64,000 nucleotides of DNA from Candidatus Hermodarchaeota archaeon (GTDB taxonomy: Archaea; Asgardarchaeota; Hermodarchaeia; Hermodarchaeales; Hermodarchaeaceae). The position numbers and the translations under genes are program-made. The stretch's first letter is position 1; each line of letters begins with the position of its first letter. Shown one piece after another: positions 13,069 through 48,800 of the stretch. The notes under the pieces are model-generated. The model saw nothing but the letters and a program-made list of their open reading frames with translations. It searched no databases and was not told the origin of the DNA. The stretch is taken from contig JAEOTO010000007.1 of assembly GCA_016839805.1 (NCBI GenBank), positions 1 through 64,000 of the forward strand, written 5' to 3'.

Positions 13069-13644
13069 GCATGATAAAACTATCACGGGTCTGCAGTCAG
13101 TTAAGGGGCTTAGATTTCCCTGGCAGCCTTCACGCACGTAGGAGTCAATGTACTTCTATAATCTTCGGTATCCAGAGAATATGGCGATTAAGTACAAGAA
13201 ATGATGTCGACGGAGCGAAAATTCTAGGGGTTTGAGAACTGACTGAACCAGATTAGTTGAGATGCACGGCGTATGTGAGGGACGAGTAGGTGCTACTCTC
13301 CTCGACTTCAAGAACCTATTGGTTAATTGAGGTGAAGATGTGGAGTGCACGGTTGCTTCGCCCAATCAGCTGGTGGGTTGGGGAAATCCTGTGAGCATGG
13401 TTGCAGGATGACATCCTCTGATTGAGAGTGATTGTAGTCAAGAGGTTGAGTGAACTAAACGGTCAACCGTTGACGTGGGGTTTTCACTGATGCAACCGCC
13501 GATGGAAGACCCATTATTAGGAAGAAATTTGGCAGAACTGGCTGATAGCGCTATGACCTCCTATCCCCAACAGGACGATTATTGATTCCAGCCACTATAA
13601 TAGGAACAGCAGCGTTTGAGTAGCACCTAAAATTTTTCTGCCAG

Positions 13645-13690
13645 ATGGGGAATGATCTCATTCTGAGACTTTTTGTACAAATACAACGTT
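13645..13690 (+). repeat. cassette-boundary repeat, copy C with partial linker
   Basis: ATGGGGAATGA TCTCA TTCTGAGACTT TTTGTACAAATACAACGT; shares GAATGATCTCATT with copy A. Confidence 0.7.
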
Positions 13691-13909
13691 TATCGTAAAG
13701 TTGCTAACAACAACTAGCAGCTTATCCCAGAATGCTTTTTTTCTTTCATACAAATACAAAAGCCACGTGGCAAATTCCCCTGTGCGAGTAATTTTTTAAA
13801 ATAGGTTGATACGAGGTTCAGAATGGCGACGTTAAAGGCACTCTTAAAACTTCATCACGAAATACTATGATTCGACTTAACGAACCGAGGACAGCCTAAA
13901 AAATAAACG

Positions 13910-14749: not shown

Positions 14750-15385
14750 CCAATCGAATCCTGAACCTTGAAGGAGTCCAATGTAGGGAACGAGCATTGC
14801 GGGAAGAACTATGAACGTACTGATTTGGTAGGCTTCATAGACCGTACTGACCCGACCAGAGATGATGACAGTAAACCCGACAGCCAGAGCCGAGAAGAGG
14901 GGGGGCATAATCAACGCTTGGACGACATCCAGTAGAGTGGGCCACACCCACAGCAAGAAGGGTGCCATAAAGAGGAGCATCCCGTTCATTATGCCAATGG
15001 CTAAGATGAAGTTAGCATAAGCGACTACCAAACCTGGCACAATGGCGGTGAGTGCCTTGCCAAGTAACAGCTCTGAATCGGTAAGTGGCGTAGCCAGTAA
15101 GGGGACTAGGGTGCGGCGCTCTTTCTCGCCTACAATGGAATCAGCCGCAATCATTACGGGTAATATCACCGGCATCATGACGACGACCAAACCCATTGTG
15201 GAGGCCATCATAACACGGTAGAAGAAAGGATCCGGGGGTGCAGGGATTACACTAATTAACCACGCCATAAACACAGAAAACATGACAGAGAATAGAACGA
15301 CCATCACAGGAATGGATTTAACTTGGCGACTCTTGAAGACCATACGGATTTCAGTACGAGCCATTACCCACACTTTTTTCAGCAT
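14645..15385 (-). CDS. ABC-2 type transporter permease
   Basis: AADSIVGEKERRTLVPLLATP...LLGK motif; about 6 TM segments. Confidence 0.88.
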   Translation of the reverse strand: MLKKVWVMARTEIRMVFKSRQVKSIPVMVVLFSVMFSVFMAWLISVIPAPPDPFFYRVMMASTMGLVVVMMPVILPVMIAADSIVGEKERRTLVPLLATPLTDSELLLGKALTAIVPGLVVAYANFILAIGIMNGMLLFMAPFLLWVWPTLLDVVQALIMPPLFSALAVGFTVIISGRVSTVYEAYQISTFIVLPAMLVPYIGLLQGSGFDWLILSLVAVILGIADYAVFRLSLNLFSRDRLISRL

Positions 15386-15392
15386 ACGTTCA

Positions 15393-16331
15393 TCAACCTC
15401 CGATGACTTTTAAGTAGACATCTTCAAGACTGGGCACACGTTCACGGAGCTCCACGATACGCAGACCAGCTTCAATGAGTACATAAACGATGGAAGGATT
15501 GTTGCGGTCGGCTTCCTCTACCACAAAGACGACGCGTCCGCCTTCCATCTTTACTGTCTTAGCGAGACCAGTGGCTTCAACAATGGCTTTGCCCTTGGCT
15601 GGATTGTTATTAACAAGTTGGAGTTCGAAGGTACGCTCAGTCCAGAATTTGTTGCGCAAATCACTGGGGCGCCCGACCTCCATGAGTCTTCCATTGGAGA
15701 TGAAAGCGACGCGGTCGCACACATGTTCAGCTTCGGAAAGAAGATGCGTACACATGAAAAATGTCTGCTTCTGACTTTCACCCATTTTGTCGATGAATTC
15801 GCGTACTTTTTTCGACATGATGGGGTCGAGAATCGATGTGGGCTCATCCAAAAAGACAACTGGTGGATTGTGGACAAGGGCGCGCGCAAGAGATAACTTC
15901 TGTTTAAGACCAGTGCTAAAGGTTCGGGGTGATTCATCGCGCCGGTCGGTGAGCTCAAGGAATTCAAGAAGTTCTTCAATGCGGTTTTGAAGTTCTTCAA
16001 TAGGAACATTATAAAGGCCACCAAAATATTGGAGGTTCTCATAGTTAGTAAGCCGGTCGTAATGGGTGTCTGCTCCATCTTCGGGCAGTAATCCGATAGT
16101 GATTCTCACTTCCTCCGGGTCTTCGAGGACATCATATCCATTAATGAAAACGGTACCTTTGTTTGGTGTAAGGAGTGTGGCTGCTATCTTTACTGTCGTA
16201 GATTTTCCTGCAGCATTCGGACCTAAAAAGCCAAAGACTTCTCCCTTTCGGACATCCAGGCTAACGTTGTTAACTGCCGTAATATCACCAAACTGCTTGG
16301 TTAAATCGTGGATTTCTATTCGTGTTATCAT
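15393..16331 (-). CDS. ABC transporter ATP-binding protein
   Basis: GPNAAGKST, FSTGLKQ, LDEPT and H-loop motifs; C-terminal PSLEDVYL. Confidence 0.92.
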   Translation of the reverse strand: MITRIEIHDLTKQFGDITAVNNVSLDVRKGEVFGFLGPNAAGKSTTVKIAATLLTPNKGTVFINGYDVLEDPEEVRITIGLLPEDGADTHYDRLTNYENLQYFGGLYNVPIEELQNRIEELLEFLELTDRRDESPRTFSTGLKQKLSLARALVHNPPVVFLDEPTSILDPIMSKKVREFIDKMGESQKQTFFMCTHLLSEAEHVCDRVAFISNGRLMEVGRPSDLRNKFWTERTFELQLVNNNPAKGKAIVEATGLAKTVKMEGGRVVFVVEEADRNNPSIVYVLIEAGLRIVELRERVPSLEDVYLKVIGG

Positions 16332-16658
16332 ATCTTTTCCTCGAGTGATGTATTCTCATATTTCCTATTAGCGCCTCTATAATTTAACAATAATTGATTA
16401 TTCCACTTGCAGATTCAATCTGATTCATGCCTTTTAATGATGTCAAGCTCACGGCTTGATATTTGTCACATTCAAAATCTTATTGGGTCAATAGGGTTCC
16501 TCTGCTAGTTACACTTGCTAGTGGGCCAGGGGCGAAAAAGTAATTGGCTGAATCCCAAGACTCAATCGACCAAGAAAATCTTCTCGCTGAATCCCCCGTA
16601 AGGGAATATTCTGGCACACCAAAGAAAGGTGGAAGTATTGGGTCTCCAGGACGACATG

Positions 16659-16723
16659 GTTCTTGATTAATCTATTCTGACACTTTTTGGCAGAATACAA
16701 TGGTTATTGCATAATCTGGATCA
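16659..16723 (+). repeat. cassette-boundary repeat, copy D with linker and left half-site
   Basis: GTTCTTGATTA ATCTA TTCTGACACTT, then linker, then AATCTGGATCA. 16680-16718 is identical to 42529-42567 over 39 bp. Confidence 0.8.
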
Positions 16724-17184
16724 CTCACATTCAACTCGTCCGCATTTTCGCATTATGGCTAGCTGAAAAAGAAAGAGCAGACCGACTAGTGGTAGAAATT
16801 GCAGCCTTACTCCATGATATCGGGAAATACCAAGGACGCAAGGACCACCACATTCACGGTCACAAACTTGCCAAAACATTCCTCAGCAACCAAAACACCT
16901 CACAAGAACAACAACACTTAATCCTAAAATGCATCCTGAAACACCGAACCCGTTTTTACTCTGAGGATAACGAACTCGAAGTTAAAATCATCCAGTGGGC
17001 TGATGTCCTCGGCACCCTCTTCAACGAGAACTGGCAAGAACACTGTAGACAAACGCTCCCTCAAGACCAAATCCAACAATTCTATGACCAAGCGAGTAAC
17101 CTCATAAGCCTTGAATCAGCAAAAACACTTGCCCAACAACGAGCCCAAACCCTATCAGCCATACTAACACAGCAAACAAAATGA
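16687..17184 (+). CDS. HD domain phosphohydrolase, possibly 5'-truncated
   Basis: H..(THIQLV), AALLHDIGK, DHH, ILKH and AD motifs. The only start (TTG) lies inside the repeat. Confidence 0.75.
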   Translation: MAEYNGYCIIWITHIQLVRIFALWLAEKERADRLVVEIAALLHDIGKYQGRKDHHIHGHKLAKTFLSNQNTSQEQQHLILKCILKHRTRFYSEDNELEVKIIQWADVLGTLFNENWQEHCRQTLPQDQIQQFYDQASNLISLESAKTLAQQRAQTLSAILTQQTK

Positions 17185-34158: not shown

Positions 34159-36123
34159 GTGAGTAAAATTGAGATTACGTCAACAGAATCCCGGGTGTTC
34201 CCACCTCCTAAAGCCTTCAGTAAACAGGCTCATATCAAGAACATGGAAGAATTAGGTAAACTTTACCAAGAATCCATCAAGAATCCCACTGGCTTTTGGA
34301 CAAAACAAGCTGAGAAACTCGATTGGTTTGAAAAATGGTCAGAACCTGTTCACACTTGGGATCCAGCTGAAGCACGTCACACCTGGTTTAAAGGTGGTAA
34401 ACTCAACGCCTGCTATAACTGTCTTGACCGTCATGTAAAGGGCGAAAATAAAGACAAAATTGCGATTATCTGGGAAGGTGACGATCCCCAAGAAAGTAAG
34501 ACCTTTACTTTCCAACAACTCCATACTGAAGTCAGTAAGTTCGCTAACGCTCTCAAGAAACTCGGATATAGAAAAGGAGACCGTATGGCAATTTATCTGC
34601 CCATGATTCCGGAACTAGCTATTGCTATGTTAGCATGTGCGCGGTTGGGCATCATTCATAGCATCGTCTTTGGCGGGTTTAGTGCAGACAGTCTGAAAGA
34701 TCGCATTCTGGATGCCAATTGCACAGGTCTCATTACCAGTGACGGGAGTTACCGTGGAGGGAAAACTATCCCTCTGAAGGACAATGCTGATGTAGCACTG
34801 AAAAGCTGTCCCAAGGTAAAACATAACATCGTCGTAAAACGCACTGGCATAGAAGTTGAAATGAGAAAGAAACGGGATCTCTGGTGGCACGAACTCATGA
34901 AGGATCTCGAAGTCCAAGGTGAATGCCCAGCTGAACCAATGGATGCGGAAGATTGTCTATTCATCCTCTATACGAGCGGTTCGACTGGTAAGCCAAAGGG
35001 CGTCCTTCATACCACTGGTGGTTACCTTACATATACTATGACCACCTTCAAGTGGATTTTCGATTATCAACCTACTGATATCTATTGGTGTACTGCTGAC
35101 ATTGGTTGGATTACTGGGCACAGCTATATTGTCTATGGTCCTCTAGCAGCCGGCGCAACAAGTGTAATGTTTGAAGGTGTACCAACCTATCCGGAACCAG
35201 ACCGTTTCTGGGCAATTGTAGAAAAATGGAATATCAACCAATTTTACACTGCTCCAACTGCTATTCGGGCTATCATGCGTCATGGCGACGAATGGGTCAA
35301 CAAACATGATCTTAGCAGTCTAAAGCTCCTTGGTACAGTTGGAGAACCTATCAATCCCGAAGCATGGATTTGGTATCATCAAGTTGTCGGAAAGGGCAAG
35401 ACACCCATTGTTGATACATACTGGCAAACGGAAACTGGGGGAGTAGTCATTTCACCTATTCCTGGTGCAGTTCCACTAAAACCTGGATCGGCCACACTGC
35501 CATTCTTTGGCATAGAAGCAATGATAGTTGACGAGTCGGGCCAAGAAGTAGGTGTAAACGAAGGCGGTTACCTTGTCATTAAGAAACCATGGCCAGGACT
35601 AATGCGCACCGTTTATGGCGACCATCAACGCTTTATTGATACCTATTTCAAGACTTTCCCACCCTACTACATGACCGGGGACGGGGCTCGAATAGACGAA
35701 GATGGTTATTTCTGGGTCGTTGGTCGAATTGACGACGTCGTAAATGTTAGTGGTCACCGTATGGGTACTGCTGAAATCGAATCCGCTCTGGTTAAACATC
35801 CCGCTGTGGCTGAAGCAGCTGTAGTCGGTTTTCCTCATGACATTAAGGGCCAAGCCCTCTACTGCTTTGTTACCCTCAAATTGGGTTACGAAAAAACTGA
35901 TGAGCTAAGACAAGAACTTCGAAAACACGTCCGTAAAGATATTGGTCCCATTGCGACCCCAGATAAAGTCCAATTCGCAGATGCCCTTCCCAAGACCCGA
36001 AGTGGCAAGATTATGCGACGGATTTTAAAGAAAATCGCAGCAGGCGAGACCAAAGATTTGGGTGACACTACAACGTTAGCTGATCCATCAATTGTCCAAA
36101 AGCTCATAAAAGAACGGGTTTAA
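34159..36123 (+). CDS. acs: acetyl-CoA synthetase (AMP-forming)
   Basis: YTSGSTGKPKG, ADIGWITGH, WQTETG and PKTRSGKIMRR motifs. Confidence 0.97.
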   Translation: MSKIEITSTESRVFPPPKAFSKQAHIKNMEELGKLYQESIKNPTGFWTKQAEKLDWFEKWSEPVHTWDPAEARHTWFKGGKLNACYNCLDRHVKGENKDKIAIIWEGDDPQESKTFTFQQLHTEVSKFANALKKLGYRKGDRMAIYLPMIPELAIAMLACARLGIIHSIVFGGFSADSLKDRILDANCTGLITSDGSYRGGKTIPLKDNADVALKSCPKVKHNIVVKRTGIEVEMRKKRDLWWHELMKDLEVQGECPAEPMDAEDCLFILYTSGSTGKPKGVLHTTGGYLTYTMTTFKWIFDYQPTDIYWCTADIGWITGHSYIVYGPLAAGATSVMFEGVPTYPEPDRFWAIVEKWNINQFYTAPTAIRAIMRHGDEWVNKHDLSSLKLLGTVGEPINPEAWIWYHQVVGKGKTPIVDTYWQTETGGVVISPIPGAVPLKPGSATLPFFGIEAMIVDESGQEVGVNEGGYLVIKKPWPGLMRTVYGDHQRFIDTYFKTFPPYYMTGDGARIDEDGYFWVVGRIDDVVNVSGHRMGTAEIESALVKHPAVAEAAVVGFPHDIKGQALYCFVTLKLGYEKTDELRQELRKHVRKDIGPIATPDKVQFADALPKTRSGKIMRRILKKIAAGETKDLGDTTTLADPSIVQKLIKERV

Positions 36124-36132
36124 CACCGTACA

Positions 36133-36182
36133 TCCGTGGGTTCAATAAGAACTCACGGAAGTATTTCTTTTTTTCTTTCTTC
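36133..36182 (+). terminator. intrinsic-type terminator after acs
   Basis: Hairpin TCCGTGGGTTC-AATAA-GAACTCACGGA followed by a T-rich tract. Confidence 0.7.
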
Positions 36183-36316
36183 ACAGGTACTACCACTAAT
36201 TTACTTTTTTCAAGTCTTAATCAGAATTAAGCTGAACCAAATATAATTCATATAAATAGGACCTTAACTAGACTGTTAACGAGTAGTAAAATGGTTTAAA
36301 AGGATGAGTTAGACTG

Positions 36317-36892
36317 ATGACTTTTGGATTAACAGGAATATTCAGCACAATTCGAATGGCTCAGGTTGATATTTCAAATCCACTTTTTTGGCTGGCAGTA
36401 TTTTTCGTATCAGGGTTGGGCGTTGCACTACTCGTTGGAATAATTGCCGGATCTATATTGACTCTGCAGGGCAGAAGTATCCGTAAGAGAGCCGCAGAAG
36501 CGGGTGTCTCAGTTAAGTTACCGAGAAGCGAAGGTGGCATTGATCCTTATGACATTGAGGGATGTGGATATTGTATTATCTTCATTGTAATCATAATTCT
36601 CGGTGCCATGGGGATTTCACTTCCTATCATATTACCCCAGCAAACAGAGGCCATAATAATGGCTGTAGTCCTAGTCATTTTTGGTGGTCTCTTTTGGGGA
36701 TTGGTCATCTGGTCCATTTTCTATACTGCCCGTGAATATCCAAAACGTCGGAAATTACTAGCAGCAGCTTTACAGGGGACTCCCAAAGCCAGGATTAGAA
36801 AAGAGGGAGAAACCCTAACATGTTCAACATGTGGTTTACCTTTACGAGCCGATGACAAATTCTGTGGTAGTTGTGGGGCTGCTACTGATTAG
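36317..36892 (+). CDS. 3-TM membrane protein with C-terminal zinc ribbon
   Basis: CSTCG...FCGSCG at the C-terminus. Confidence 0.75.
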   Translation: MTFGLTGIFSTIRMAQVDISNPLFWLAVFFVSGLGVALLVGIIAGSILTLQGRSIRKRAAEAGVSVKLPRSEGGIDPYDIEGCGYCIIFIVIIILGAMGISLPIILPQQTEAIIMAVVLVIFGGLFWGLVIWSIFYTAREYPKRRKLLAAALQGTPKARIRKEGETLTCSTCGLPLRADDKFCGSCGAATD

Positions 36893-37103
36893 ATTCACAT
36901 CGATGATCGGCTATTCCTATTTGATTTTTTTTTAAAAAAAATGCTCACTATTGTACATATTTTATAAACAGTGATAGTGCATAGACGGTATCTGTGTGAG
37001 AAAGGATGGTTTCAAAAGTACAGTGGGCAAATTTACCTAATATTGCATTAATGATAGCCCGAATCTGTTTTCATAACAAACACAATGGAATGGAGGTGAA
37101 TTA

Positions 37104-37634
37104 ATGAAACGAAAAATATTACCCTGTATTCTAGTGTGCTGTTTATGGTCCCTGACAATCGTTGAAGTAAGTGCCAATGGGTATTGGATGCCAACAGAAT
37201 TTGGGAGCCTGCTTGGTCCTATTCCAGCTCTTGGGCATAAGCATATGCAAAAAACAACCGCTCATTCACGAGAAGAATTCGAATTTAACTGGACAACTGG
37301 TCTTGTTGCCGTTAACTTCCACATTATGAACGCAGTTAACTACCAAAACTGGTCAACAGGCCAGCCTTGGACTGGCACCGTAAATCACCTAAACATCACC
37401 GGTGAAGCCTTTTCCTGGGAAACTTATGGAGCTAATGCCACATATCATTTCATCTGGTACAACCCATCCGTGATTGGTACAAACATAGTTGGTGATTGGC
37501 ATCGTAGTCGATGGGTCGAAGTTGAAGGAAACATACCAGGTTTTCCAATTGAAACCATCGTAATTGGCCTTGCCATTGCAATAGGACTAGGTATTGTCAT
37601 TAGGCACAGAATGAAAAAACAAGATTCGAAGTAA
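37104..37634 (+). CDS. secreted protein with IPGF C-terminal sorting signal
   Basis: Signal peptide, several N-glycosylation sequons, IPGFP + TM + basic tail. Confidence 0.75.
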   Translation: MKRKILPCILVCCLWSLTIVEVSANGYWMPTEFGSLLGPIPALGHKHMQKTTAHSREEFEFNWTTGLVAVNFHIMNAVNYQNWSTGQPWTGTVNHLNITGEAFSWETYGANATYHFIWYNPSVIGTNIVGDWHRSRWVEVEGNIPGFPIETIVIGLAIAIGLGIVIRHRMKKQDSK

Positions 37635-37662
37635 CACTATTAGAAACAATTCAACAGTCATA

Positions 37663-38157
37663 CTACTGCTCTTCAAGAAGTAGTTGTAGGATTTTCTGTT
37701 GATCGCGAACATCGAATACTAAAGCAGCGACCATAGGAATTGGAATAACTACCCATACTAAAACTAAGACGAAATAGAACATGCCAAAGACAAAACTAGC
37801 AATGGCTGCTACAATCCCAATGATAAAGAGGATACAAAAACACCCTTCCGCTGCATTCGCGTCTTGAATTGCGAGTGACCACCCTCGAAAATAGGTCAAC
37901 CTTCCCCGGGTCCATGTGATAGTCTTACCAGCTTCTTCGGCTTTTCTCCTCATTTTTCTTCGATGGAGATTACGAAGCATTATTAAAAATCCGGGGAATA
38001 GAACATCGAAGAAGACACCAGCAAAGACAAAAATGAATGCCACGACAATCGGATCCCAAAATCTTTGTTGCATCAAAAAACCTGTTGTAATAAATGATGT
38101 CAACATCATGAAATGAAAAATCATAGTAATCACGTTACCTTCCCTCCTGATAATCAC
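37663..38157 (-). CDS. membrane protein (RKAEEAG/EGC paralog family)
   Basis: TM segments; RRKAEEAG and EGCFC motifs shared with 36317..36892. Confidence 0.65.
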   Translation of the reverse strand: MIIRREGNVITMIFHFMMLTSFITTGFLMQQRFWDPIVVAFIFVFAGVFFDVLFPGFLIMLRNLHRRKMRRKAEEAGKTITWTRGRLTYFRGWSLAIQDANAAEGCFCILFIIGIVAAIASFVFGMFYFVLVLVWVVIPIPMVAALVFDVRDQQKILQLLLEEQ

Positions 38158-38809
38158 CTAGATGAGCTCCACATCTGCCACAGAACTTATCCGTTTCGGT
38201 GATTGATTCTCCACATACTGGACAACTCGTAGGTTTGTCTTTCATTGGTTTCTCTCTAAGAAGTGGTGTTGATGTCTTATCCACTGCTTCGGAATACCTT
38301 CGACTACCCCGTCTTAATCCGATGATTCCACAAACGAGAATGATTGGTATGATCACCGCAAAGAGCACCGCCATAACTACGAATCCAATTAATTGACCGA
38401 CTTCTTCAGGAACAAGTGGGAAAGTTGGAAGTGGGATATCAAAGAGTATCATGAAACCAGCAATTGTCACAATTGCAAGGAAGCAGAAGAATGGATATCC
38501 GTGAGAGAGAGATTCATCTTGGTGGGGAGGTTGTGGTTTCACCACAGGAATTACTTGCTGTTCTAAGGCTTGCTTTTTTAGCTTTGCATGGCGTCTACCA
38601 TAGATGCAGCATATAAGAGATAGAATAATTGTAAATCCAATTCCAAAAATGATAGCATAAACAAAAAGATTGTCGATATTGAACCCAGGAGCCTGAGCGA
38701 GTATATTTGTATATGTCAAGAACTGATGTATCATCTTTGGGAGACTAGATTGATCAAGTATTTGTCGTGCTATTGCCATTAGAGAACACCCTAGAAATGT
38801 TTCATACAC
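38135..38809 (-). CDS. 3-TM membrane protein with C-terminal zinc ribbon
   Basis: CPVCG...FCGRCG at the C-terminus. Confidence 0.72.
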   Translation of the reverse strand: MYETFLGCSLMAIARQILDQSSLPKMIHQFLTYTNILAQAPGFNIDNLFVYAIIFGIGFTIILSLICCIYGRRHAKLKKQALEQQVIPVVKPQPPHQDESLSHGYPFFCFLAIVTIAGFMILFDIPLPTFPLVPEEVGQLIGFVVMAVLFAVIIPIILVCGIIGLRRGSRRYSEAVDKTSTPLLREKPMKDKPTSCPVCGESITETDKFCGRCGAHLGDYQEGR

Positions 38810-39038
38810 TGTACTTAGTTTTTTAAATAAGTTATTTCAGTTACATATTCCACAGAAATAAACTGATTCTGTGCGCTAGAACTACATTTACTTTGTTCAC
38901 TGCTTTAATATTGTTTGTAAAGGGTTTTTAATATTTTAAGGGCATATAGTATTTATTAAATATGGAAAGCTTTTTCAGTAATAGCAAATCAAAGAATTCA
39001 ATTACCCAGCTTATGGGAAAAAACTGGGAGAGATCATC

Positions 39039-39635
39039 ATGGTTTCGGCTAAAATACCAAAAGTATTGGCTGTTATTGCACTGGTCGTAAATCTCATCGC
39101 AGTACTCATAACGGTCTATTGGCTCATCCAAATCTGGATACTTATCGGGTGGATCATTATCATTCCCTTTATTGGCATCATTTTCCTTGCGATGATCCTT
39201 GGCCCCTGGCTCTTAACGTTCATCTTCGTCTTAATTTTCACACTAATCCTCCCTCTACGAACATATCGTGACATTACTCCAGAAAATCCCCAGTCACCTG
39301 CCACTATCTTCGCGATAGGCGGAATCATTGGAATTATACTCGGCGCTTTCGGCCTATTTCCCAATCCTCTTATTGCTTTTGTATTCTTGGTTTTTGGACC
39401 TAGCGTGCTTTTTAATGCTGTTCCTCAACTCATCGGAGGAATTTTCCTGGTAATTGCAGGTGCGTTATCATTAACAGTAGAAGAGGAATATGAAGCAACA
39501 CCTCCCATAGAAGAACCAAAAGAACCACCAAGTCCTTCAGTAACTGAAAAGTCCGAAGTTAACATATGCCAATCATGTGGATCCGAGTTGTCCGAGAATG
39601 AGAAATTCTGTCGGAATTGCGGTGCAGAAGTGTAG
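39039..39635 (+). CDS. membrane protein with C-terminal zinc ribbon
   Basis: About 4 TM segments, Pro/Glu linker, CQSCG...FCRNCG. Confidence 0.75.
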   Translation: MVSAKIPKVLAVIALVVNLIAVLITVYWLIQIWILIGWIIIIPFIGIIFLAMILGPWLLTFIFVLIFTLILPLRTYRDITPENPQSPATIFAIGGIIGIILGAFGLFPNPLIAFVFLVFGPSVLFNAVPQLIGGIFLVIAGALSLTVEEEYEATPPIEEPKEPPSPSVTEKSEVNICQSCGSELSENEKFCRNCGAEV

Positions 39636-39676
39636 CAGATATTAAAAAGAACGCACAGAAAATGGAGTGAACCTAA

Positions 39677-40144
39677 TTGGATTTCCGAAAGCCTGCTAGA
39701 ATAACTATCTTGATTGGAACCATTATCGGCTTAATTCCTCTTGCACTCTCAATATTGGCAACCGTCACACTCATTATCACTTGGTGGGAATTCATAGTGA
39801 CCCCAATTCTAGGGCTTGGTATGATTATCTACTTAGGTATCGCAATAGTCCTAATCGTCGTAATTTTGATTCTCAACATCATTATTCCACTTATTGGGTT
39901 TTTCCGAATTCACTATGAAATCAGGGAGCGCTTTTCCATTATCTTCCTATTCATTGCTATTATCACATTCTTTCTCGCATACCTTTTCTGGGAACTTTGG
40001 CTAGGACGTGCACCTGAGATATTTCCAATCTTCAGCATGGCATTCGCACCATTCTCATATTTTCTCATGATCTTTCTAATTGCAGTTGGAATTGTCTATA
40101 TTTTGGCTAGTATACTTACAATTCTCATTCGCGAACCAAGTTAA
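39677..40144 (+). CDS. hypothetical 4-TM membrane protein
   Basis: Very hydrophobic; topology similar to the upstream gene. Confidence 0.65.
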   Translation: MDFRKPARITILIGTIIGLIPLALSILATVTLIITWWEFIVTPILGLGMIIYLGIAIVLIVVILILNIIIPLIGFFRIHYEIRERFSIIFLFIAIITFFLAYLFWELWLGRAPEIFPIFSMAFAPFSYFLMIFLIAVGIVYILASILTILIREPS

Positions 40145-40265
40145 TAACCAAGCTAAATACAAGTGCAGTTGTGTGACTTAACAACAGATTATGCCATCTT
40201 CATCAAAGTGAGAAATTTTAGTTAATAGCTTTGTCCATACCGGTTAATGATGGAAGCGCCTGTAT

Positions 40266-40294
40266 TATCTGGAAAATGCTATTAAGACACTTTT
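40266..40294 (+). repeat. cassette-boundary repeat, copy E
   Basis: TATCTGGAAAA TGCTA TTAAGACACTT TT. Confidence 0.72.
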
Positions 40295-40414
40295 AAGTCG
40301 GTGGACCCAACCTCAAAAATAGAAGATAAATTGAGTATTGGCGGTGTTTTCCTATAAAGGTGAATTAAGTTTTGTTTAATAGTTCGCATTAGTAATTGAT
40401 ACTAGGGTGGTTCT

Positions 40415-41470
40415 ATGGAGTCGCTGCTAAGAAATTGGAATGGGGAAAGCGTGATTATCCGCTTTGATCGACCTTCAGGCGCTTGGATAATCATCGCCAT
40501 TCATTCGACTTTTCTAGGACCCGCAATAGGTGGCACGCGTATGAAGTCTTATCCGAATTTTAAAGCTGCCCTAGAGGATGCTCTTCAATTAGCAGCCAGC
40601 ATGACTTACAAATTTGCAGCAGCTGATTTCCCTTCTGGCGGTGGTAAAGCTGTAATCGCGCTCCCTTCCTCCTTCGACATACATGAGAGACCGAGCTTAT
40701 TGCGGCATTATGGGACATTGCTGAAGCAATTAGGTGGGTTGTTTCAAGCTGGACCTGATGTAGGAACCTCTCCTGCCGATATGGATATTATAGCAGAGAC
40801 CGGGGCACCATTTGTTTTTTGTCGAACCCCCGAAAAAGGGGGAGCTGGAGGTTCGGGAAAATGGACCGCCCTAGGCGTCTTTCATGGCATGCAAGCTGTA
40901 TGCAAACAGCTTTTTGACAATGAATCACTTAGGGAGCGAGTCGTCATGGTTCAGGGAACGGGTAGTGTTGGTCACCCATTGATTGAGTTACTATTGAAGG
41001 ATGGAGCTGAGGTATTGTTTAGTGAAGTAAACCAAACGGCTATTCAACATTTCCGCGATAAACTCAAATTGCCATTTGTCCCACCTAAACGCGTTTATGA
41101 TACTCCCTGTGACATATTTGCGCCCTGTGCTTTAGGTGGAATTCTTAACAAGGATACGATTCCCCGTCTGAAATGCACCGCAATTGCTGGAGCCGCCAAC
41201 AACCAACTCGCTGAACCAACCGATGCTGTGAGACTAATGAAGAGAAATATCTTGTATGCACCTGATTTTATAATTAGTATAGGTGGAGCCATGGCAATCA
41301 TTGGAATTGAGAGAATGGGCTGGTCAACAGATGAAGCCCGAGCGAAAGTAAACTCAATTAAGCAAACAATGCTGCGAGTTTTTAAACTGGCTAAAGATGA
41401 CCATATTACTACTGATGCCGCGGCTAAACGTATAGTTGACTCTCGACTGTCTAGAACTGAAAGTAAATGA
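40415..41470 (+). CDS. Leu/Phe/Val amino acid dehydrogenase
   Basis: GGTRM, MTYK, GGGKAVI, GPDVGT, QGTGSVG, APCALG and GAANNQL motifs. Confidence 0.92.
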   Translation: MESLLRNWNGESVIIRFDRPSGAWIIIAIHSTFLGPAIGGTRMKSYPNFKAALEDALQLAASMTYKFAAADFPSGGGKAVIALPSSFDIHERPSLLRHYGTLLKQLGGLFQAGPDVGTSPADMDIIAETGAPFVFCRTPEKGGAGGSGKWTALGVFHGMQAVCKQLFDNESLRERVVMVQGTGSVGHPLIELLLKDGAEVLFSEVNQTAIQHFRDKLKLPFVPPKRVYDTPCDIFAPCALGGILNKDTIPRLKCTAIAGAANNQLAEPTDAVRLMKRNILYAPDFIISIGGAMAIIGIERMGWSTDEARAKVNSIKQTMLRVFKLAKDDHITTDAAAKRIVDSRLSRTESK

Positions 41471-41513
41471 CGAAAAAGATGTGGGCGGAAAGACTAGATA
41501 GGAATAATCAAAA

Positions 41514-41542
41514 TTTCTGGATGAGCCTATTATGACACTTTT
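41514..41542 (+). repeat. cassette-boundary repeat, copy F
   Basis: TTTCTGGATGA GCCTA TTATGACACTT TT. Confidence 0.75.
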
Positions 41543-41678
41543 CTATGGATATTTTACTTGAATCCGTCTTGTGGCGTAGGGGCTCATTTTTGCCTGATAC
41601 GGAAAGCGCTATCTTTGCGTGTGTGCTGCCCCTGGCTAGTGAAATATTGTCTTGTAGCCAGCCAATGCTTGAATTGCT

Positions 41679-42350
41679 TTAGAATCCAACGGTTTCTCCG
41701 AGTAAGATAATTGTTGAATCTGTATGGACAGGTCGGCGTTCAATTATCGTCGTTACATTGCAGATCCTATTCGGTGACTCACAATCTGAACAGATACCAG
41801 TTTTTGCACATGGCACTTGAAAATTTAAGCGTTTAGCGTTCATTGGAGCCGCGACATATCTGATTCTGTCCATGGCTTGTTCCACATTCCTGACTATCTT
41901 ATTTACTCCTGCAATGATGATAACCTTCTGCGGGCCAAAGATCATAGCAGCGACACGTTGACCAGCGTGATCAATGTTAACGAGATGGCCTTCCTCTGTG
42001 ATCGCGTTAGTGCTTGTCAAAAAGATATCCGCGTGTGCCAGCATTTTTCTTGCTTTCATCACGTCTTCCGGTTTTTGTCTTTTCTTTTGTGCCTCCCAGT
42101 GACTAATAATTGTATTTCCTCGTTGTTCAAGGGAATCTACAAGACCAATTTCCCTTATAGTGACAGATCCTCCAACGCCTACTAAGGCATTAGGAGGAAT
42201 AAGCTGTAAGACCCTAGCCATAACTTCATTTCTTGTAGGAAAATACATCACGTCAAAGCCATTCTTTTTCAGTGCAGTCAAGGTTCTTTGAACCTTCTTT
42301 TTCCAATACCAGTTCCTAACCTCCTGCCACACTTTTACATCATGCCACAT
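41679..42350 (-). CDS. LUD domain (lactate utilization LutC/YkgG-like) protein
   Basis: GGSVT, TSTNAIT..G.LVNID, GVNKIV and APMNAKRL...PC...GICSDC...RIC motifs. Confidence 0.85.
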   Translation of the reverse strand: MWHDVKVWQEVRNWYWKKKVQRTLTALKKNGFDVMYFPTRNEVMARVLQLIPPNALVGVGGSVTIREIGLVDSLEQRGNTIISHWEAQKKRQKPEDVMKARKMLAHADIFLTSTNAITEEGHLVNIDHAGQRVAAMIFGPQKVIIIAGVNKIVRNVEQAMDRIRYVAAPMNAKRLNFQVPCAKTGICSDCESPNRICNVTTIIERRPVHTDSTIILLGETVGF

Positions 42351-42461
42351 TTTACCACCACATTAAATGCTAAGTTAACAACCCAAAAATACCTTTCATA
42401 GTAGTACTAGCAAAATCAATAGATATTCAGCATCAATCATTGTAAGGAAAAAATCAAAAAA

Positions 42462-42572
42462 GGTACGAATACATCGATAGTTGAAAAATCTGTAAAGGGG
42501 CATTATGACACTTTTGCAAATTATTGTAACACTTTTTGGCAGAATACAATGGTTATTGCATAATCTGAATTT
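42462..42572 (+). repeat. cassette-boundary repeat, copy G with linkers on both sides
   Basis: GGTACGAATACATCGATAGTTGAAA AATCTGTAAAG GGGCA TTATGACACTT (42487-42513), then a 21-bp sub-repeat and the 39-bp copy of 16680-16718. Confidence 0.8.
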
Positions 42573-42689
42573 GGTTCCTTAGGATTTAAGATGCAGGCGC
42601 TCCTCAGGATAAATGAACACTATTCTAGAATTATTACTATTTGATACTGTGAAATCCTGTCATGGCTTTCCGAGAAAGGGGCTAGGTCC

Positions 42690-43346
42690 TTGCGGCTTAT
42701 CAGTTCTTTTTTTAATTTTTTTGAAGCAGGACCTTTTTTATTCGATGGTTCAAGCATAGCTGTTGAGGGAATATCATTCATTCTTACATTAGTTAGTGGG
42801 GTTTTGGTCTTTGGCGTCCTTCGATGGCGAACACACCGTAAGCTTGCACCCTATCTGGTTACGCTGGGCGTTATGCTCCTTTTCGCGGTGTTGGAAACGT
42901 GGATCGTCACGATTTGGCAGCCCGACCTCGGGCGACGTGATCTAGAAGACGCCGTAGCTAAGTTTTTCGCCTTCCCTTACACCGTAACTATACGTGAAGG
43001 CGAGTTTCTATGGATATATTCCTATATCGGTGTACTCATTGAGTGTGGAAACCTTCGATTGTTTCTCTTTTTATCCCCTACAGTTATTCATGGGTCAGCT
43101 GAAATGGTGTTCTGGTTCGCCCAGATCCGGCTGCTGGCCTTCCGCATCGTCATCAGTTTTCACCTCATCGCCCTCCTCCTCTTCATGCTCATCTTAACCA
43201 GCGTCGATATCATCTACAGGCGATTCCACATCCGAGCTGTCACCAAACACTCAAAGGCAGCCCATGAGGGGTTCTCGTGCAGCTCTGAGGAAGAACGAGC
43301 GGATGGTAGTGTTACTCAAACCGCTTCAAGGAACTTAGCTTCTTAG
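42690..43346 (+). CDS. hypothetical membrane protein
   Basis: Several TM segments; lies between repeat copies G and H; start uncertain. Confidence 0.55.
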   Translation: MRLISSFFNFFEAGPFLFDGSSIAVEGISFILTLVSGVLVFGVLRWRTHRKLAPYLVTLGVMLLFAVLETWIVTIWQPDLGRRDLEDAVAKFFAFPYTVTIREGEFLWIYSYIGVLIECGNLRLFLFLSPTVIHGSAEMVFWFAQIRLLAFRIVISFHLIALLLFMLILTSVDIIYRRFHIRAVTKHSKAAHEGFSCSSEEERADGSVTQTASRNLAS

Positions 43347-43430
43347 TTGAGGAGCACCGGTTAGAGTGGTAGTACTGAAGTTTTGGTGGGTACAATACAC
43401 GTAGCGTGCGGTATTTCCTTTTTTAATCGG

Positions 43431-43465
43431 TTGCAGAATCTGGATAATCCCATTGTGACACTTTC
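43431..43465 (+). repeat. cassette-boundary repeat, copy H
   Basis: TTGCAG AATCTGGATAA TCCCA TTGTGACACTT TT. Confidence 0.78.
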
Positions 43466-43686
43466 TCTTTTGATTATTCACATGAGGCAATATTGCAAAG
43501 TGGGACCATTAGGATGAATATAGAAAATTGGTTTCTCATTTTCATCCGACAAAGAAGGTTAGCTTTAACGCGTCAAATCTATCTATTAAGAGTATTGTTT
43601 CTTTTCCTTTGAATCAGAAATAAACTGTCAAGTAGTTCGACACATTTAAGACTGAACTTTGGAATCGTTCAAATGATTACTCGTAG

Positions 43687-44880
43687 TTGAGTAATTGTTT
43701 AAATATCGAGGTTTCAAACATGCGTATTACTCGAAATTTTCTCTTATTCTTAGCAATGTGTACTTTGCTTCTACCGTTTTTCTCAATTGGTTTTTCAGGG
43801 ATTCAAATGGCGCCTTCAATGACTGTAATGGCCCTGCCTGCTCCAACACTTACACCACGAATTCTTTACTTTACTCAGTTTGCTGATAATACTCCTGCTG
43901 GCGAAGTACAGAATGTCTGGGGGGCGATTAATGATACTCATGGAACCAATTATGTTCGAACCAACCTAACTTCCTACACGGATCTTGCTAGCGAGCTCCC
44001 GAACTGTGATATTCTTCTCATTCCCGAACAAGAGCAGATTTATTCAGAAAATATCACCGCTATTGCGCCAACTTGGCTAACGCCACTTAACACCTTCCTG
44101 AGTCAAGGTGGAATTATAATCGGCATGACCTACTCCAGTGATAACTTCGGACCTATTGCCACTGCGCATATACTCAATGACACGGGATTAATGGATATTC
44201 AGGGATCATCACCTATGACAGGGTCACCGGTCACTATTCTTGACGCTACAGATCCCCTTGTTGATGGGGTAAGTGCATTTACCGCTCCAGATGGCAGTGT
44301 AGATTTCATTACTACAGAAACCGGAATTGTGGCGAATACCACTTTGGGACCAATCCTTCTTCACAAACAGAGTAGTCTTGGGCACATCGTTCTGATGGGA
44401 ATGGATTTCTTTGCACGAGATTCTGAAGCTGACAAAATTCTTGGCAACGCCATCCGATTATACCAACCACCTTCAGCACCGGTTCTAAATGATCCAGGGG
44501 TTACGATTTCAGGATTTCAGGTCCCACTTACTTGGACTGCGGCAACAGACACCGATGGTATTATTGACCATTATGAAGTGCAGGCTAGCGCTGATGCCGG
44601 CTTTTCCATTATTGGTCAAAGTGATACCACAACGATGTTGAATTACAGTTTTACCTTTTTGTCAAATGGAACCTATTATTTCCGCGTTCTAGCTGTTGAC
44701 AATAATACATTAGAAGGTCCATGGAGTACTGTGGTAAGTACCTATATTGAACTCCCACCCTTAACTTTTCCAACTGGTATTCCGGGGTTCCCGATTGAAG
44801 CGATAGCTCTGGGGCTAGTACTTTCATTGGGAATAATTTTCGTCGTACGCCATCATAAACAGCAAAAGGTATCTTCATAG
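43687..44880 (+). CDS. surface protein with fibronectin type III domain and IPGF sorting signal
   Basis: Signal peptide; LTW...YEVQ...YYFRVLAV..GPWS FN3 pattern; IPGFP + TM + basic tail. Likely start ATG 43720. Confidence 0.8.
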   Translation: MSNCLNIEVSNMRITRNFLLFLAMCTLLLPFFSIGFSGIQMAPSMTVMALPAPTLTPRILYFTQFADNTPAGEVQNVWGAINDTHGTNYVRTNLTSYTDLASELPNCDILLIPEQEQIYSENITAIAPTWLTPLNTFLSQGGIIIGMTYSSDNFGPIATAHILNDTGLMDIQGSSPMTGSPVTILDATDPLVDGVSAFTAPDGSVDFITTETGIVANTTLGPILLHKQSSLGHIVLMGMDFFARDSEADKILGNAIRLYQPPSAPVLNDPGVTISGFQVPLTWTAATDTDGIIDHYEVQASADAGFSIIGQSDTTTMLNYSFTFLSNGTYYFRVLAVDNNTLEGPWSTVVSTYIELPPLTFPTGIPGFPIEAIALGLVLSLGIIFVVRHHKQQKVSS

Positions 44881-45084
44881 GGAGATACCTTCTATCCTTT
44901 CTTTTTTGGTTAGATTGTTATCATTTCGCCTACTCTAATGATCATATCAAGGTGTCTATGTGAGGATTTCGAACGATGTGGGTTTTACATTTCAAAACTT
45001 GTTTTACCTGTGTCCCATTTGTCTAAGCCGACTATGAATTCTGGATGTTTCCTTAATTAGAGGAGTATCAACACTATACAAGAG

Positions 45085-45495
45085 CTATGCTCCTGCTTCA
45101 GATCTCTTCGACACTAGACCACCAATGAGTCCGATGAGGCCAGGTAAGAATCCAATGATAAAGGGGAAAATTCCCAGTATCAAGCTTATGATACCAGTAA
45201 TAATTATGCCCATTTTGTGTTCACCAGGATGTCGGAACCAACGGAACCATAGTATCATTGTTATAAGAGACCATACTCCCTGAGCTGCGGAGATTACCAT
45301 AATTGGAACACCAGTGATAAACCAGTAAGCCATTATGTCTGGATGATAATCTGGTGAGCTGGGAACAAACCAACCCGTCCAATAGTAATTCAGATGCAAC
45401 AAATAGAACAGTGCAAAAATAGTGAATGAAGCAAGCATTCCTAGGAGGTGAAGTACTGCTCCTGCGAGGACATAATTTGAACCTTTTTCAGACAT
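45085..45495 (-). CDS. hypothetical membrane protein
   Basis: 3-4 TM segments; paralog of 53850..54184. Confidence 0.7.
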   Translation of the reverse strand: MSEKGSNYVLAGAVLHLLGMLASFTIFALFYLLHLNYYWTGWFVPSSPDYHPDIMAYWFITGVPIMVISAAQGVWSLITMILWFRWFRHPGEHKMGIIITGIISLILGIFPFIIGFLPGLIGLIGGLVSKRSEAGA

Positions 45496-45818
45496 TACTC
45501 TGTTCCCTCCATTCCAGTTGGTAACGTAGCTTCTTTGGCTAGATGTATAAAGCTGTTTGCTATTAAGAAAAAACTGTATTTCAAAGTTTAATATCCACTT
45601 TACGAACCGCTCTTTTTCCTTTACACAATGCCAAATACATGTGTTTTTTCTCGTATGATATATAAGGTAGAACAGGCAATTCTATCTCAGTGCTGGGAAG
45701 ATTGGTTTCAATGAAGTGGCTAAGTGACAACTTAAACGATGAGCGTAGTTTTACTTCTTCTAAGCACTAGTGAAGGCTTTCCGAAGGTTGTATTTAGACA
45801 TGCTGTTACGGCCCTCTC

Positions 45819-48800
45819 TTGCATTTCATCAAGAAATGCGTACTACTACTCTTCGGAAGCGTTCCTCATAATAAAGGAGAGATTTCAATGAAACAATTTC
45901 AAAACAGAAGTAATCGACTACGATTACTCCTTTTCGTTCTCTTGTTATCCATTTCAGCTCTAAGTGTTCCTTACTATTATTCCAATGCACTCCCGATGAG
46001 CGCAAATAACGGCATTCACTCAGAACAGAATTTGGTCTCAACTGCAAGTGCTTTCTCCAAAATCCCATCTACACGATCGACTGATAGACAAGTATCTTCC
46101 GTAATTAATTTCGTTTCACAGCAGGAGATGCCTTCTAGGGTGTTATTGGGAAAATCTAGTTCCTCTCCCTTGACATATGGCACACCACATGGCCCGATCA
46201 TCATTACCAGTGATTCTAATTTCGCAACCCAGGCTGGTAATGAAATGTGGCCAGGGAATGGAAGTAGCAGTAACCCCTATATTATCGCGAGTTTTGATGT
46301 CGATGTTGCTGGAGGTAATTACGGGATTCATATCAGTGATACCACTGTGTATTTCATAATCCAGCATTGTTTCCTTCAAGACGCTATCATTGCTTGTATC
46401 TTTCTTGAACGCGTCCAAAATGGACAACTATTCAATAATACGTGCTATGATTATGACACTGGTATCCTTCTCGAAGATTCAGATGATAATCGAATAACTA
46501 ATAACAACTGTACCATGAGCAAATTTGGCGGATACGGAATCGATCTTGATGATTCACACTATAACGTGATCGCAAATAACACCTGTTCAGACAACGATAG
46601 TCGCGGTATCTATCTTTATTGGTCAGATTTTTGTCAGCTAATTAATAACACCTGCTATGCCAATGATAGGGGTATCATTACAAATGTGGCTGATCACACC
46701 ACGCTCACTGACAACACCTGTTATAGTAATACCTTACGTGGTATTGTCATCTGGGGCGGGGATCAGCTCACTGTCGCAAATAATACGGTTTACAATACAG
46801 GGGCATGGGGGTTTGAAATTGACGCTGTATATGATAGTACCTTCTCAGACAATCTCTGTTACCAAAATAGTCATGGAATGTACATTGAAGGTAATTCACA
46901 AGAAAATCAAATTAGTGATAATACTTGTTATCTTAATGATTACGGCATCTTTCTTAGTGGCTCACGCACCAACAGTATCGTCAACAATAACTGTAGCGAC
47001 AATAATCTTGCTGGAATATCTTTGTCTAATTCAGATTTGAATACTTTGAGCGACAATATCTGTGAAACTAATCTTGAAAATGGCATTAGTCTTACTAACT
47101 CGGATTCTAACACCTTAGACTACAATAACTGCTCAAGTAACACATTGAATGGCATTCACCTCATTAATTCTATTTCCAATAGACTGACTGATAACATCTG
47201 TCAGGACAGTGATATCGGAATCAATGTGGAATATTCACCGAGAAACGAGCTCATTGATAACTTATGCCAGGTCAATGACTATGGTATTTTACTCAACAAT
47301 TCAAAATTCAATCAACTCAGTCACAATACCTGTGAATCTAATAACATCGTAGGCATCCGCCTCTACCAAGTCAATTCCTCAACTGTTATTTACAACGACG
47401 TGAAAACGAATAATATTGGCATTCTCCTCGAAGAATCAGATTCCAACAAGATCTACTATAACACCTTTGAAGATAACACTGGCTATGGTGTTCGAGTTAT
47501 AGGATTTTCACATTTCAATCAAATCAAGTGGAACCTCTTACAGACCAACGTAAACAATGCTTTGGACAACTGCACCAATAATTTGTTTGATTACAACTAT
47601 TGGTCTAACTATACAGGTCCAGATGCCAATTCAGACGGCATTGGAGATATTCCCCATCCGATTCCAGGTTGGGGGAATAATACTGACCCTCATCCAGCAT
47701 TGATTTCACCACTGCCACCAACATGGCTACAACCGCTCGTTAACCAAACCGTTGAATTAGGAACATCCTTTACCTATGATGTCGATGCTGACGCTATTGC
47801 TCCCATGGATACATATTGGATCAACAACACACTCTACTTTACGATTGATGATAGCGGTGTGATTAGCAACAAAGGCCTCATACCAATAGGAACCTATTGG
47901 CTACTCATTATTGCCACGAACGTGTATCAAGCCCAACTAACAGGAATTTTCAATGTGACAGTGGTGGACACCACACCTCCCATCTGGTACGAACAGCCAC
48001 AAGACATGATAATTCATCATGACCAAGATGTTGCCTACCAGGTACCCTTACCCTTTGACCTTTCTGGAATACTGTATATCTGGCTTGAAGGATCGGGATC
48101 CTCAAGGTTTGATATCAATGCAACTGGATATCTTACCAATAATATGTCACTATTCCCTGAGGTTTACAACATCACAGTAGTTGCTGAAGACCCATATCAC
48201 AACTATAATTCCGTAACCTTCTTCATCGATGCAAAAGAATACATTTTCACTCCTCCTGAAGTACCATGGGCAGAAATTAATTTCTGGGTGATACTACTCT
48301 GTTCAATCATTGGAGGAGTAGTCATACTATATCTCAGCGTCCTCATCATAATGAACTTCAGAAAAACTCGTGTCCCCAAGTCATCAACAAACTTACTTCG
48401 ACTCCAGACCCCCATACTTCTCATTGTTCTAATACTACTATTGATTTTTGCACCCCTAATGCACGCAGTTATTCAAGGAGGCACTCAACCCACCGGAAGA
48501 AGCGGAATCACCACCAATCAAACAACACCATTTACTAGTCTAACCGTAGACAGTAAACAAGATCCAATGGTTCCTAGTTCGCCATTTTCCAATCCCTACA
48601 TGATTTGGAATCAAACCTTCTCATTTTCAGATTGGGATGATGGTCGATCACTTGTAGCATGTAGTGATGGAGGATACCTTATCGTGGGACGTACCAGTAC
48701 AGCAACAAATACTGATTTCTTAACGATACGAACTGATGCTAATGGGAATCACCTATGGAATCGAACCTTTGGAGGTCCTGATCATGACTATCCTGAACAA

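Follow-up and report, generated by a model that had tools for sequence, protein, structure and literature searches.

How three unrelated genes came to be stacked between same-direction copies of one short site in the genome of a Candidatus Hermodarchaeota archaeon is the question raised by this locus. The window (the whole stretch of DNA analysed, 64,000 nt) carries four such copies, and the original prediction interpreted them as the joints of stacked one-gene cassettes inserted into a membrane-protein gene region, arguing against a promoter or operator role. The analysis presented here confirms the arrangement and supports the cassette reading, as related species and contigs from independent metagenome studies carry or lack gene packets at the site. 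In its behaviour the locus resembles a bacterial integron, but with a different site and with no known enzyme.

Organisation of the site and the array

The four copies conform to WTCTGGA-N6-TATTATGACACTTTT, each pair enclosing exactly one long ORF. A pattern search with TCTGGA-N7-ATTATGACACTTT placed all four on the + strand with 0-1 mismatch, 2 nt after the originally predicted positions (40266, 41514, 42487 and 43437). Six matches were found in the window, including 13041 and 16661, whereas 0.02 were expected and 0 of 100 shuffles reached 6. Furthermore, a weight matrix built only from 21 copies in other genomes recovered exactly these 6 places (28.7-44.4 bits), with nothing else at 12 bits or more and 0 hits in 5 shuffles. 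The features of the array and of the other array in the window are as follows.

40268-40293 (+), site copy 1 (TCTGGA-AAATGCT-ATTAAGACACTTT; 38.5 bits)
40294-41515 (+), cassette 1; the gene at 40415-41470 (+) is an ELFV-family (Glu/Leu/Phe/Val) amino-acid dehydrogenase, LeuDH-like (PF00208, PF02812)
41516-41541 (+), site copy 2 (41.3 bits), between two convergent 3' ends (41470 and 41679)
41542-42488 (+), cassette 2; the gene at 41679-42350 (-) encodes a LUD-domain protein (PF02589)
42489-42570 (+), compound site 3: TCTGTA-N7-core a (42502-42514; the copy spans 42489-42514), core b (42523-42535), a 27-nt E element (42537-42563) and TCTGAAT (42564-42570)
42571-43438 (+), cassette 3; the gene at 42690-43346 (+) encodes a hypothetical membrane protein with no Pfam or NCBIfam family
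43439-43464 (+), site copy 4 (TCTGGA-TAATCCC-ATTGTGACACTTT; 28.7 bits)
43687-44880 (+), fn3-domain gene (PF00041) to the right of the array, more widely held in the genus and the resident neighbour
13041-13176 (+), site copy of the other array plus the 135-nt family A element, which ends in an inverted partial site
13660-16660 (+), three-gene cassette (279-aa ORF, ABC-2 permease and ABC ATPase; with Pfam hits) that starts at a worn core plus a variant of the 27-nt element
16661-16721 (+), site copy followed by the 27-nt E element and TCTGGAT, abutting the HD-domain ORF

The flanking ORFs are predicted membrane proteins by a crude hydropathy count. The contrast in codon usage is modest, as the LeuDH and LUD genes look native (GC3 0.37-0.40) and only the hypothetical gene stands out (GC3 0.51). 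No tRNA was found in the window, so the sites are not tRNA-end copies. No Rfam family matched at gathering score in the window or in 4 loci, nor at E<=1 in C18:6500-9200 (contig C18 of this genome), window 44850-45120 or window 13000-13920, and the family A element showed no net covariation.

Distribution of the site and mobility of the cassettes

The site has 56 copies in 14 of 15 genomes of the genus, against 1 control match, and is near noise in 385 other genomes of the phylum. All 6 contigs with two or more copies have them on one strand. The stretch 42502-42567 of compound site 3 recurs in many genus genomes, often at contig ends. Metagenome contigs yielded 15 loci with the same kinds of cassettes, while viral contigs gave 0 exact matches.

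If the three genes had been vertically inherited in this order, the cassette reading would have failed; however, none of the 14 other genomes of the genus holds them in this order. Close orthologues are patchy, with LeuDH in 2 of 14, LUD in 3 of 14 and the family of the hypothetical gene in 4 of 14. Interestingly, single cassettes recur in other contexts with homology breaking at the sites. In G014 (genus genomes are denoted by G numbers, contigs by C numbers), the LeuDH unit 40307-41521 is 92% identical on contig C9; the homology starts 13 nt after site copy 1 and ends right after TCTGGA, although the unit has only worn sites there. The LUD unit is 89% identical in G009 (41516-42515, on C51) and in G011 (41512-42495, on C16), where the protein is 96% and 91% identical, and it was not found in the other 11 genus genomes. 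Similarly, 13660-15562 of the three-gene cassette is 91% identical in G008, behind a full double-core site, and 93% identical in G013.

Precise presence and absence of cassettes was also observed. G013 lacks the hypothetical gene and joins LUD straight to the fn3 gene, linking 42535 to 43452 with a 13-nt overlap equal to the core. Contigs of runs X2 and X5, from two independent metagenome studies, join 41515 to 43439 with the 7 shared letters TCTGGAT, thereby skipping LUD and the hypothetical gene. Site copy 4 is the right edge of both deletion joints. The join of 40144 to about 43690 (all three cassettes missing), suggested as a check in the original prediction, was not found, and the fn3 orthologues of G009, G008, G011 and G001 (61-77% identity) have other neighbours and no site beside them, making them uninformative as empty sites. 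Of 64 distinct internal ends of alignments at 85% identity or more, 20 fall within 10 nt of a site, where 0.7% of positions do; however, these ends are non-independent and the loci were chosen because they hold sites. The syntenic core (window 19.3-36.1 kb) is only 65-78% identical to G014, G009, G011 and G008, whereas the cassettes are 89-92% identical, so the cassettes moved recently.

The cargo is typical of accessory genes (Imm5-like, GNAT, ABC transporter and TnpB), and of 13 distinct cassettes, 9 have the main gene in the direction of the site. The closest named relatives of the LeuDH-like protein are bacterial, at 61-69% identity.

Search for the recombining enzyme

No recombinase gene linked to the arrays was found. 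In this genome, which is 87% complete, tyrosine recombinases lie only on contigs C28 and C24, and no serine recombinase, IS110, Y1 or Cas1 gene was found. Among 222 ORFs within 4 kb of the sites, no gene family recurs apart from shared cassettes. The C28 gene (C28:24037-24984) scores 266 bits on NF040815 (XerA_Arch, cut-off 220), and homologues of about 315 aa were seen in most genus genomes; XerA is the only recombinase found to be conserved in the genus. Nevertheless, it remains a candidate only. The C24 integrase has no site near it and its homologues are patchy; one decayed fragment follows a site in G009, but this is a single case and serves only as a lead.

The stretch is best explained, with moderate confidence, as an array of three mobile single-gene cassettes stacked in front of a resident fn3 gene, with each joint formed by one copy of an oriented, asymmetric 28-nt site (W-TCTGGA, a 6-7 nt variable spacer, then TATTATGACACTTTT) specific to one genus. 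Cassettes are gained, lost and exchanged between species as units, and the breakpoints fall inside the site, although all comparisons rest on metagenome assemblies. The mechanism is inferred: a cassette would leave as a circle carrying one reconstituted site and re-enter at any other copy by conservative recombination, through an enzyme acting in trans. No circular cassette form was seen in these data. The observed exchange points lie at either edge of the variable spacer, one at TCTGGAT and another in the core, and the lack of a single fixed position also fits homologous recombination. Furthermore, 5 of 6 window copies show no dyad symmetry, unlike the usual substrates of tyrosine recombinases, including dif (PMC2958812).

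Alternative explanations

The main rival, though unlikely, is that the site is a shared regulatory module (promoter and/or oligo-T terminator) whose copies are shuffled by the homologous recombination of the host without a dedicated recombinase, as with the PeSL “mobile regulatory cassettes” of T4-type phages, for which exchanges and mini-circles are documented (Arbiol et al., 2010; PMC2839356). By inspection, the part GGA-WWAAG-n-TATTATGA loosely resembles the purine-rich box plus TTTAAA box seen 30-40 nt before the tRNA genes of this genome, and the core ends in T4-T6; the differing exchange points and the fact that no linked recombinase was found also agree with this view. However, 28 nearly invariant bases with sharp edges are far more than the tRNA promoters of this genome share, LeuDH and fn3 appear to have their own TTTAAT/TTTAAATA boxes 25-45 nt before the start codon, copy 41516 faces the 3' end of a reversed gene, no stem-loop was found, and the 7 shared bases at one joint are short for homologous recombination. 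A promoter-like role, which the original prediction had argued against, is not excluded, but it cannot explain the data alone.

It is very unlikely that the site is an ordinary operator or promoter of a regulon of vertically inherited genes, or an artefact of metagenome assembly at short repeats. The copies are intergenic, most lie 80-220 nt before a co-oriented gene, and all the genomes are MAGs. Nevertheless, gene order is not conserved in any of the 14 relatives, the identity of the cassettes exceeds the background, the same units and joints appear in independent assemblies and studies, and the identical part of the site is probably shorter than the k-mers usual in assembly.

Equally improbable is the cutting of the site by a TnpB-type RNA-guided nuclease, with homing repair spreading the cassettes. 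A TnpB-like ORF of this genome (C18:6963-8402, minus strand) does sit in a cassette whose 3' flank abuts the full site, so that its guide would match the site, and a remnant of that flank follows a site in G001. However, this TnpB has no close homologue in the other 14 genus genomes (the best is 40% identical), none of the 10 other TnpB loci hold the site, no conserved motif follows the core where a TAM would lie, no Y1 or resolvase gene as expected of IS200/IS605-IS607 elements was found, and the gene has foreign composition (GC 0.58). It looks like cargo.

The weakest alternative, a canonical integron remnant (CALIN), recalls the mostly CALIN-type archaeal integrons enriched in Asgard genomes (Ghaly et al., 2022; PMC9668308) and matches the architecture of one-gene units with co-oriented sites, but can be set aside (without a dedicated attC-calling program) since 8 single-strand folds (4 sites on both strands) gave z from -1.25 to +0.22, 5 of 6 copies had a best 11-bp dyad no better than shuffles, no GTTRRRY-type box was seen, and both tyrosine recombinases of this 87% complete genome score below the integron-integrase cut-off of TIGR02249 (148 and 51 bits against 265).

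Comparison with known systems

Like integrons, including sedentary chromosomal integrons, CALINs and the archaeal ones, the arrays consist of mostly one-gene, mostly co-oriented, individually mobile cassettes joined by one kind of oriented site, carry accessory genes including one of bacterial type, and lack an adjacent integrase, as CALINs do. However, the conserved block is only 28 nt and asymmetric, as opposed to the 57-141 nt imperfect palindrome of attC with R''/R' boxes, no attI/Pc platform was found, and the arrays are short (1-4 sites) and scattered over different loci in different species. Functionally, this is an integron-like gene-capture platform, but not a member of the integron family.

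PeSLs share the short, conserved, co-oriented intergenic motifs flanking non-essential genes in variable regions, with insertions, deletions and replacements between close relatives breaking at the motifs. They are, however, a sigma-70 promoter plus a terminator stem-loop in phage genomes and recombine by the homologous recombination of the phage, while the present genome is that of a cellular archaeon.

Xer-exploiting elements (dif modules of Acinetobacter plasmids and IMEX such as CTX phage) also appear to lack a recombinase gene of their own, so that a housekeeping Xer recombinase could act in trans. Archaeal dif, however, is made of two 11-bp inverted arms with a 6-bp spacer (PMC2958812); five of the 6 copies were at or below the shuffle mean for such a dyad, and only 16661 reaches 9/11, between the core and the start of the E element. 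Moreover, dif modules are probably bounded by inverted sites, whereas all the sites here are direct. The true dif of the genome was not found; a perfect-looking 11+6+11 palindrome at C8:10061, sharing GACACT with the core, was rejected as it lies in the last codons of a gene and is kept in only 4 of 15 genus genomes. The core of the present site (TGACACTTT) is also different from the core TACTCACA of putative, unverified arrays in other Hermodarchaeota.

Implications for gene flow in Asgard archaea

Available literature describes integrons with canonical attC in archaea and other Asgard mobile elements, but nothing like this site was found in the searches made. It is possible, though tentative, that the locus represents an undescribed site-specific gene-capture system of Asgard archaea, in which genus-specific asymmetric 28-nt sites are recombined by an enzyme encoded elsewhere (XerA used in a new way or an unrecognised recombinase), moving single genes between species and taking in bacterial genes; such a system would be an independently evolved archaeal counterpart of the integron. 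Gene flow into Asgard archaea, including from bacteria, is central to ideas on how the eukaryotic gene set arose, but its routes are poorly known. This locus provides a concrete, testable route, with a defined 28-nt site, defined cassettes, natural variants that differ by whole cassettes and a short list of candidate enzymes. If the enzyme is XerA or a new recombinase, cassette capture has evolved more than once, and the system would also supply a new site/recombinase pair.

Repeat copies and the genes between them

The four repeat copies of the original prediction, which placed exactly one gene between each pair, are real. The pattern TCTGGA-N7-ATTATGACACTTT matches at the following six positions, all on the + strand with 0-2 mismatches:
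40268 (+), first site
41516 (+), second site
42489 (+), third site
43439 (+), fourth site
13041 (+), site of the other array in the window (array 1)
16661 (+), site of array 1

Thus, 6 matches are observed where 0.02 are expected, and 0 of 100 shuffled sequences reached 6. Furthermore, a weight matrix made only from 21 copies in other genomes recovered exactly these six (28.7-44.4 bits), while nothing else was found at 12 bits or more and nothing was found in 5 shuffles. One long ORF lies between each pair of the four copies:
40415-41470 (+), an ELFV-family amino-acid dehydrogenase (LeuDH-like), whose best NCBIfam model is Trp dehydrogenase ScyB at 255 bits, below that model's cut-off
41679-42350 (-), a LUD-domain protein
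42690-43346 (+), a hypothetical protein with no family and four hydrophobic segments

The neighbours on both sides are predicted membrane proteins, as judged by a crude hydropathy count. The stretch to the left (36124-40267) carries a run of small membrane proteins with C-terminal zinc ribbons (ORFs at 36317, 38135 and 39039) and has no DNA match in 13 of the 14 other genomes of the genus, representing a variable region without site copies.

Structure of the site

Across 30 distinct copies with flanks, conservation rises sharply at position -1 and falls sharply after +26, yielding the consensus W-TCTGGA-WWA-nnn-T-ATTATGACACTTTT, of which the middle six or seven bases vary. The block has no dyad symmetry in 5 of the 6 copies in the window, and the surrounding 120-135 nt do not fold better than shuffled sequences on either strand (z from -1.25 to +0.22 in 8 folds). 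Interestingly, many copies are compound, comprising a first core, 7-8 nt, a second core (ATTGTRACACTTTT) exactly 21 nt after the first, a 27-nt element (TGGCAGAATACAATGGTTATTGCATAA or a variant) and another TCTGGAT; the third site (42489-42570) is of this kind. Where the 27-nt element follows a core, the core and the first nine bases of the element form a 9/11 inverted repeat around CTTTT, as seen for the copy at 16661. An HD-domain ORF (16687-17184) begins inside the 27-nt element that follows this copy, its only start codon being the TTG at 16687.

A 135-nt element (‘family A’; 13041-13176) starts with the full site and ends in an imperfect inverted copy of the site's first ~20 nt (...CTATAATCTTCGGTATCCAGA). 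It is conserved in 6 copies of 5 genomes with unrelated DNA after it and is MITE-like or structured; no net covariation and no Rfam match were found. A 63-nt non-coding element (44985-45047) downstream of the fn3-domain gene to the right of the array is 76-86% conserved in 7 genus genomes, in some of them not next to fn3, and ends in TTCTGGAT, the left half of the site; it has no Rfam match.

Mobility of the cassettes

Window 36000-48000 was compared with the 14 other genomes of the genus, and 24 stretches were aligned all against all. The LeuDH unit (40307-41521), and nothing around it, is 92% identical to contig C9 of the genus genome G014, where it sits between an ECF-transporter gene and a hypothetical gene; the homology ends immediately after TCTGGA and begins 13 nt after the first site. 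The LUD unit runs from site to site, with 41516-42515 being 89% identical in contig C51 of genome G009 and 41512-42495 being 89% identical in contig C16 of genome G011. Genome G013, the closest relative (83-93% identity in core genes), joins 42139-42535 directly to 43452-48362 with a 13-nt overlap that is the core, and so lacks the hypothetical cassette. In array 1, the three-gene unit 13660-15562 is 91% identical in genome G008, where it lies behind a full double-core site with a different gene before it. Of 64 distinct internal alignment ends (85% identity or more, 150 nt or more, between genomes), 20 lie within 10 nt of a site, where 0.7% of positions do; however, these ends are not independent, some of the other 44 merely mirror a partner's contig end, and the loci were chosen for holding sites.

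Independent evidence from populations was obtained by placing Logan contigs of four metagenome runs on 39600-44900. The joint 41515->43439, which skips 1,923 nt (the LUD and hypothetical cassettes) and where seven letters (TCTGGAT) fit both sides, appears in run X2 (one contig) and in run X5, in which a 9,226-nt contig covers 39600-41515 and 43439-44900 at about 94% identity. These runs belong to two different studies (a sediment and a mangrove). Run X5 also holds a contig in which the 27-nt element directly precedes the LUD unit. In run X1, probably the source sample, the piece 42538-43110 has a depth of 5.4 against 11 and 9.3 for its neighbours, which is only a hint that the third cassette is not in all cells. 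Three natural arrangements thus exist in front of the same fn3 gene, namely LeuDH-fn3 (X2, X5), ...LUD-fn3 (G013) and LeuDH-LUD-hypothetical-fn3 (this genome).

Recent transfer and patchy occurrence

The syntenic core next door (19.3-36.1 kb of the window) keeps its order in the genus but is only 65-78% identical to every genome except G013, while the cassettes shared with G014, G009, G011 and G008 are 89-92% identical. Close orthologues of LeuDH are found in 2 of 14 genus genomes (93% and 66%) and in none of 26 further relatives, while those of LUD are found in 3 of 14. The hypothetical family is found in 4 of 14, in addition to a paralogue in this genome (C43:14125-14793; 66% amino acid and 79% DNA identity) that carries two in-frame stops, so it is probably a dead copy. 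Beyond two near-identical metagenome proteins, the best hits of the LeuDH-like protein are 60-71% identical, and all five that carry an organism name are bacterial MAGs (Thermodesulfobacteriota, Desulfobacteraceae, Desulfobacterales, Zixibacteria and Chloroflexota). Composition is native-like for LeuDH and LUD (GC3 0.37-0.40), while it is raised for the hypothetical gene (0.51) and the array-1 cassette (0.52-0.58).

Distribution of the site

With 2 mismatches or fewer, the pattern has 56 matches in 14 of 15 genus genomes against 1 control match, and all 6 contigs with two or more copies have them on one strand. In contrast, 385 other genomes of the phylum have 38 matches in 35 genomes (36 of them with 2 mismatches) against 16 control matches, which is close to noise. 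Arrays are short (1-4 sites) and lie at different loci in different species. Other cassettes encode an Imm5-like protein, a GNAT acetyltransferase, a 2-oxoacid-dehydrogenase-type acyltransferase, an ABC transporter and a TnpB-like nuclease, and in 9 of 13 distinct cassettes the main gene runs with the site. Apart from shared cassettes, no gene family recurs near the sites among 222 ORFs within 4 kb.

Possible mechanism and alternative explanations

The two best-resolved events put the exchange at the left edge of the variable spacer (X2/X5 against this genome) and at its right edge, in the core (G013 against this genome). The spacer tends to travel with the right-hand flank; for example, T[GT]A[AG]CCT goes with one family of right arms and TAAAGAT with another. 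Exchange at either edge of a 6-7 bp spacer is what a tyrosine recombinase would leave, and XerA is the only recombinase found to be conserved in the genus. Nevertheless, the asymmetric arms argue against a simple XerA site, and XerA is considered a lead only. The only recombinase trace seen beside a site is a decayed, frameshifted fragment (residues 112-231) of a tyrosine recombinase like that at C24:291-1367 of this genome, which lies 55 nt after a site copy in G009 (contig C51; 7246-7628 of locus L013, minus strand).

The main rival, which is possible although less favoured, is recombination between shared regulatory modules, as shown for PeSLs in T4-type phages (PMC2839356). In its favour, the site loosely resembles the tRNA promoters of this genome and ends in a T-run. 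However, the 28 nearly invariant bases, the promoter-like boxes that the cassettes appear to have near their own start codons, the second site facing a reversed gene and the 7-base joint stand against it.

A role for TnpB is unlikely. A cassette on contig C18 of this genome (6630-9040; 2631-5041 of locus L033) holds a TnpB-like 479-aa ORF on the minus strand, whose 3' flank abuts the full site, so its guide would match the site; it is followed by a ~230-nt conserved non-coding ‘F’ element ending in a double core, which is also found in genomes G012, G004 and G001. Nevertheless, this TnpB-like gene is unique to this genome, has foreign composition (GC 0.58), and none of the 10 other TnpB loci carry the site, so that it looks like cargo. 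The sites are also not dif-like in form; archaeal dif is two 11-bp inverted arms and a 6-bp spacer (PMC2958812; PMC8371274). The array is not an IS200/IS605 or IS110 system either; no Y1, serine-recombinase, IS110 or Cas1 gene was found in this 87%-complete genome. Lastly, the array is not an integron: it has no attC-type fold or dyad, both tyrosine recombinases of the genome (one being a clear archaeal XerA) fall below the integron-integrase cut-off, and the sites lack the design of the archaeal integrons with canonical attC, enriched in Asgard genomes and mostly without integrase, described by Ghaly et al. (PMC9668308).

No description of such sites was found in the literature searched, and Wu et al. 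2022 (PMC8813620) has no occurrence of ‘integron’, ‘cassette’ or ‘direct repeat’. Although all the evidence comes from metagenome assemblies, and no enzyme or circular intermediate has been seen, the cassettes behave as units, the breaks are in the site and exchange between species is recent. It is inferred that conservative recombination between two site copies excises a circle with one site and inserts it at another copy.
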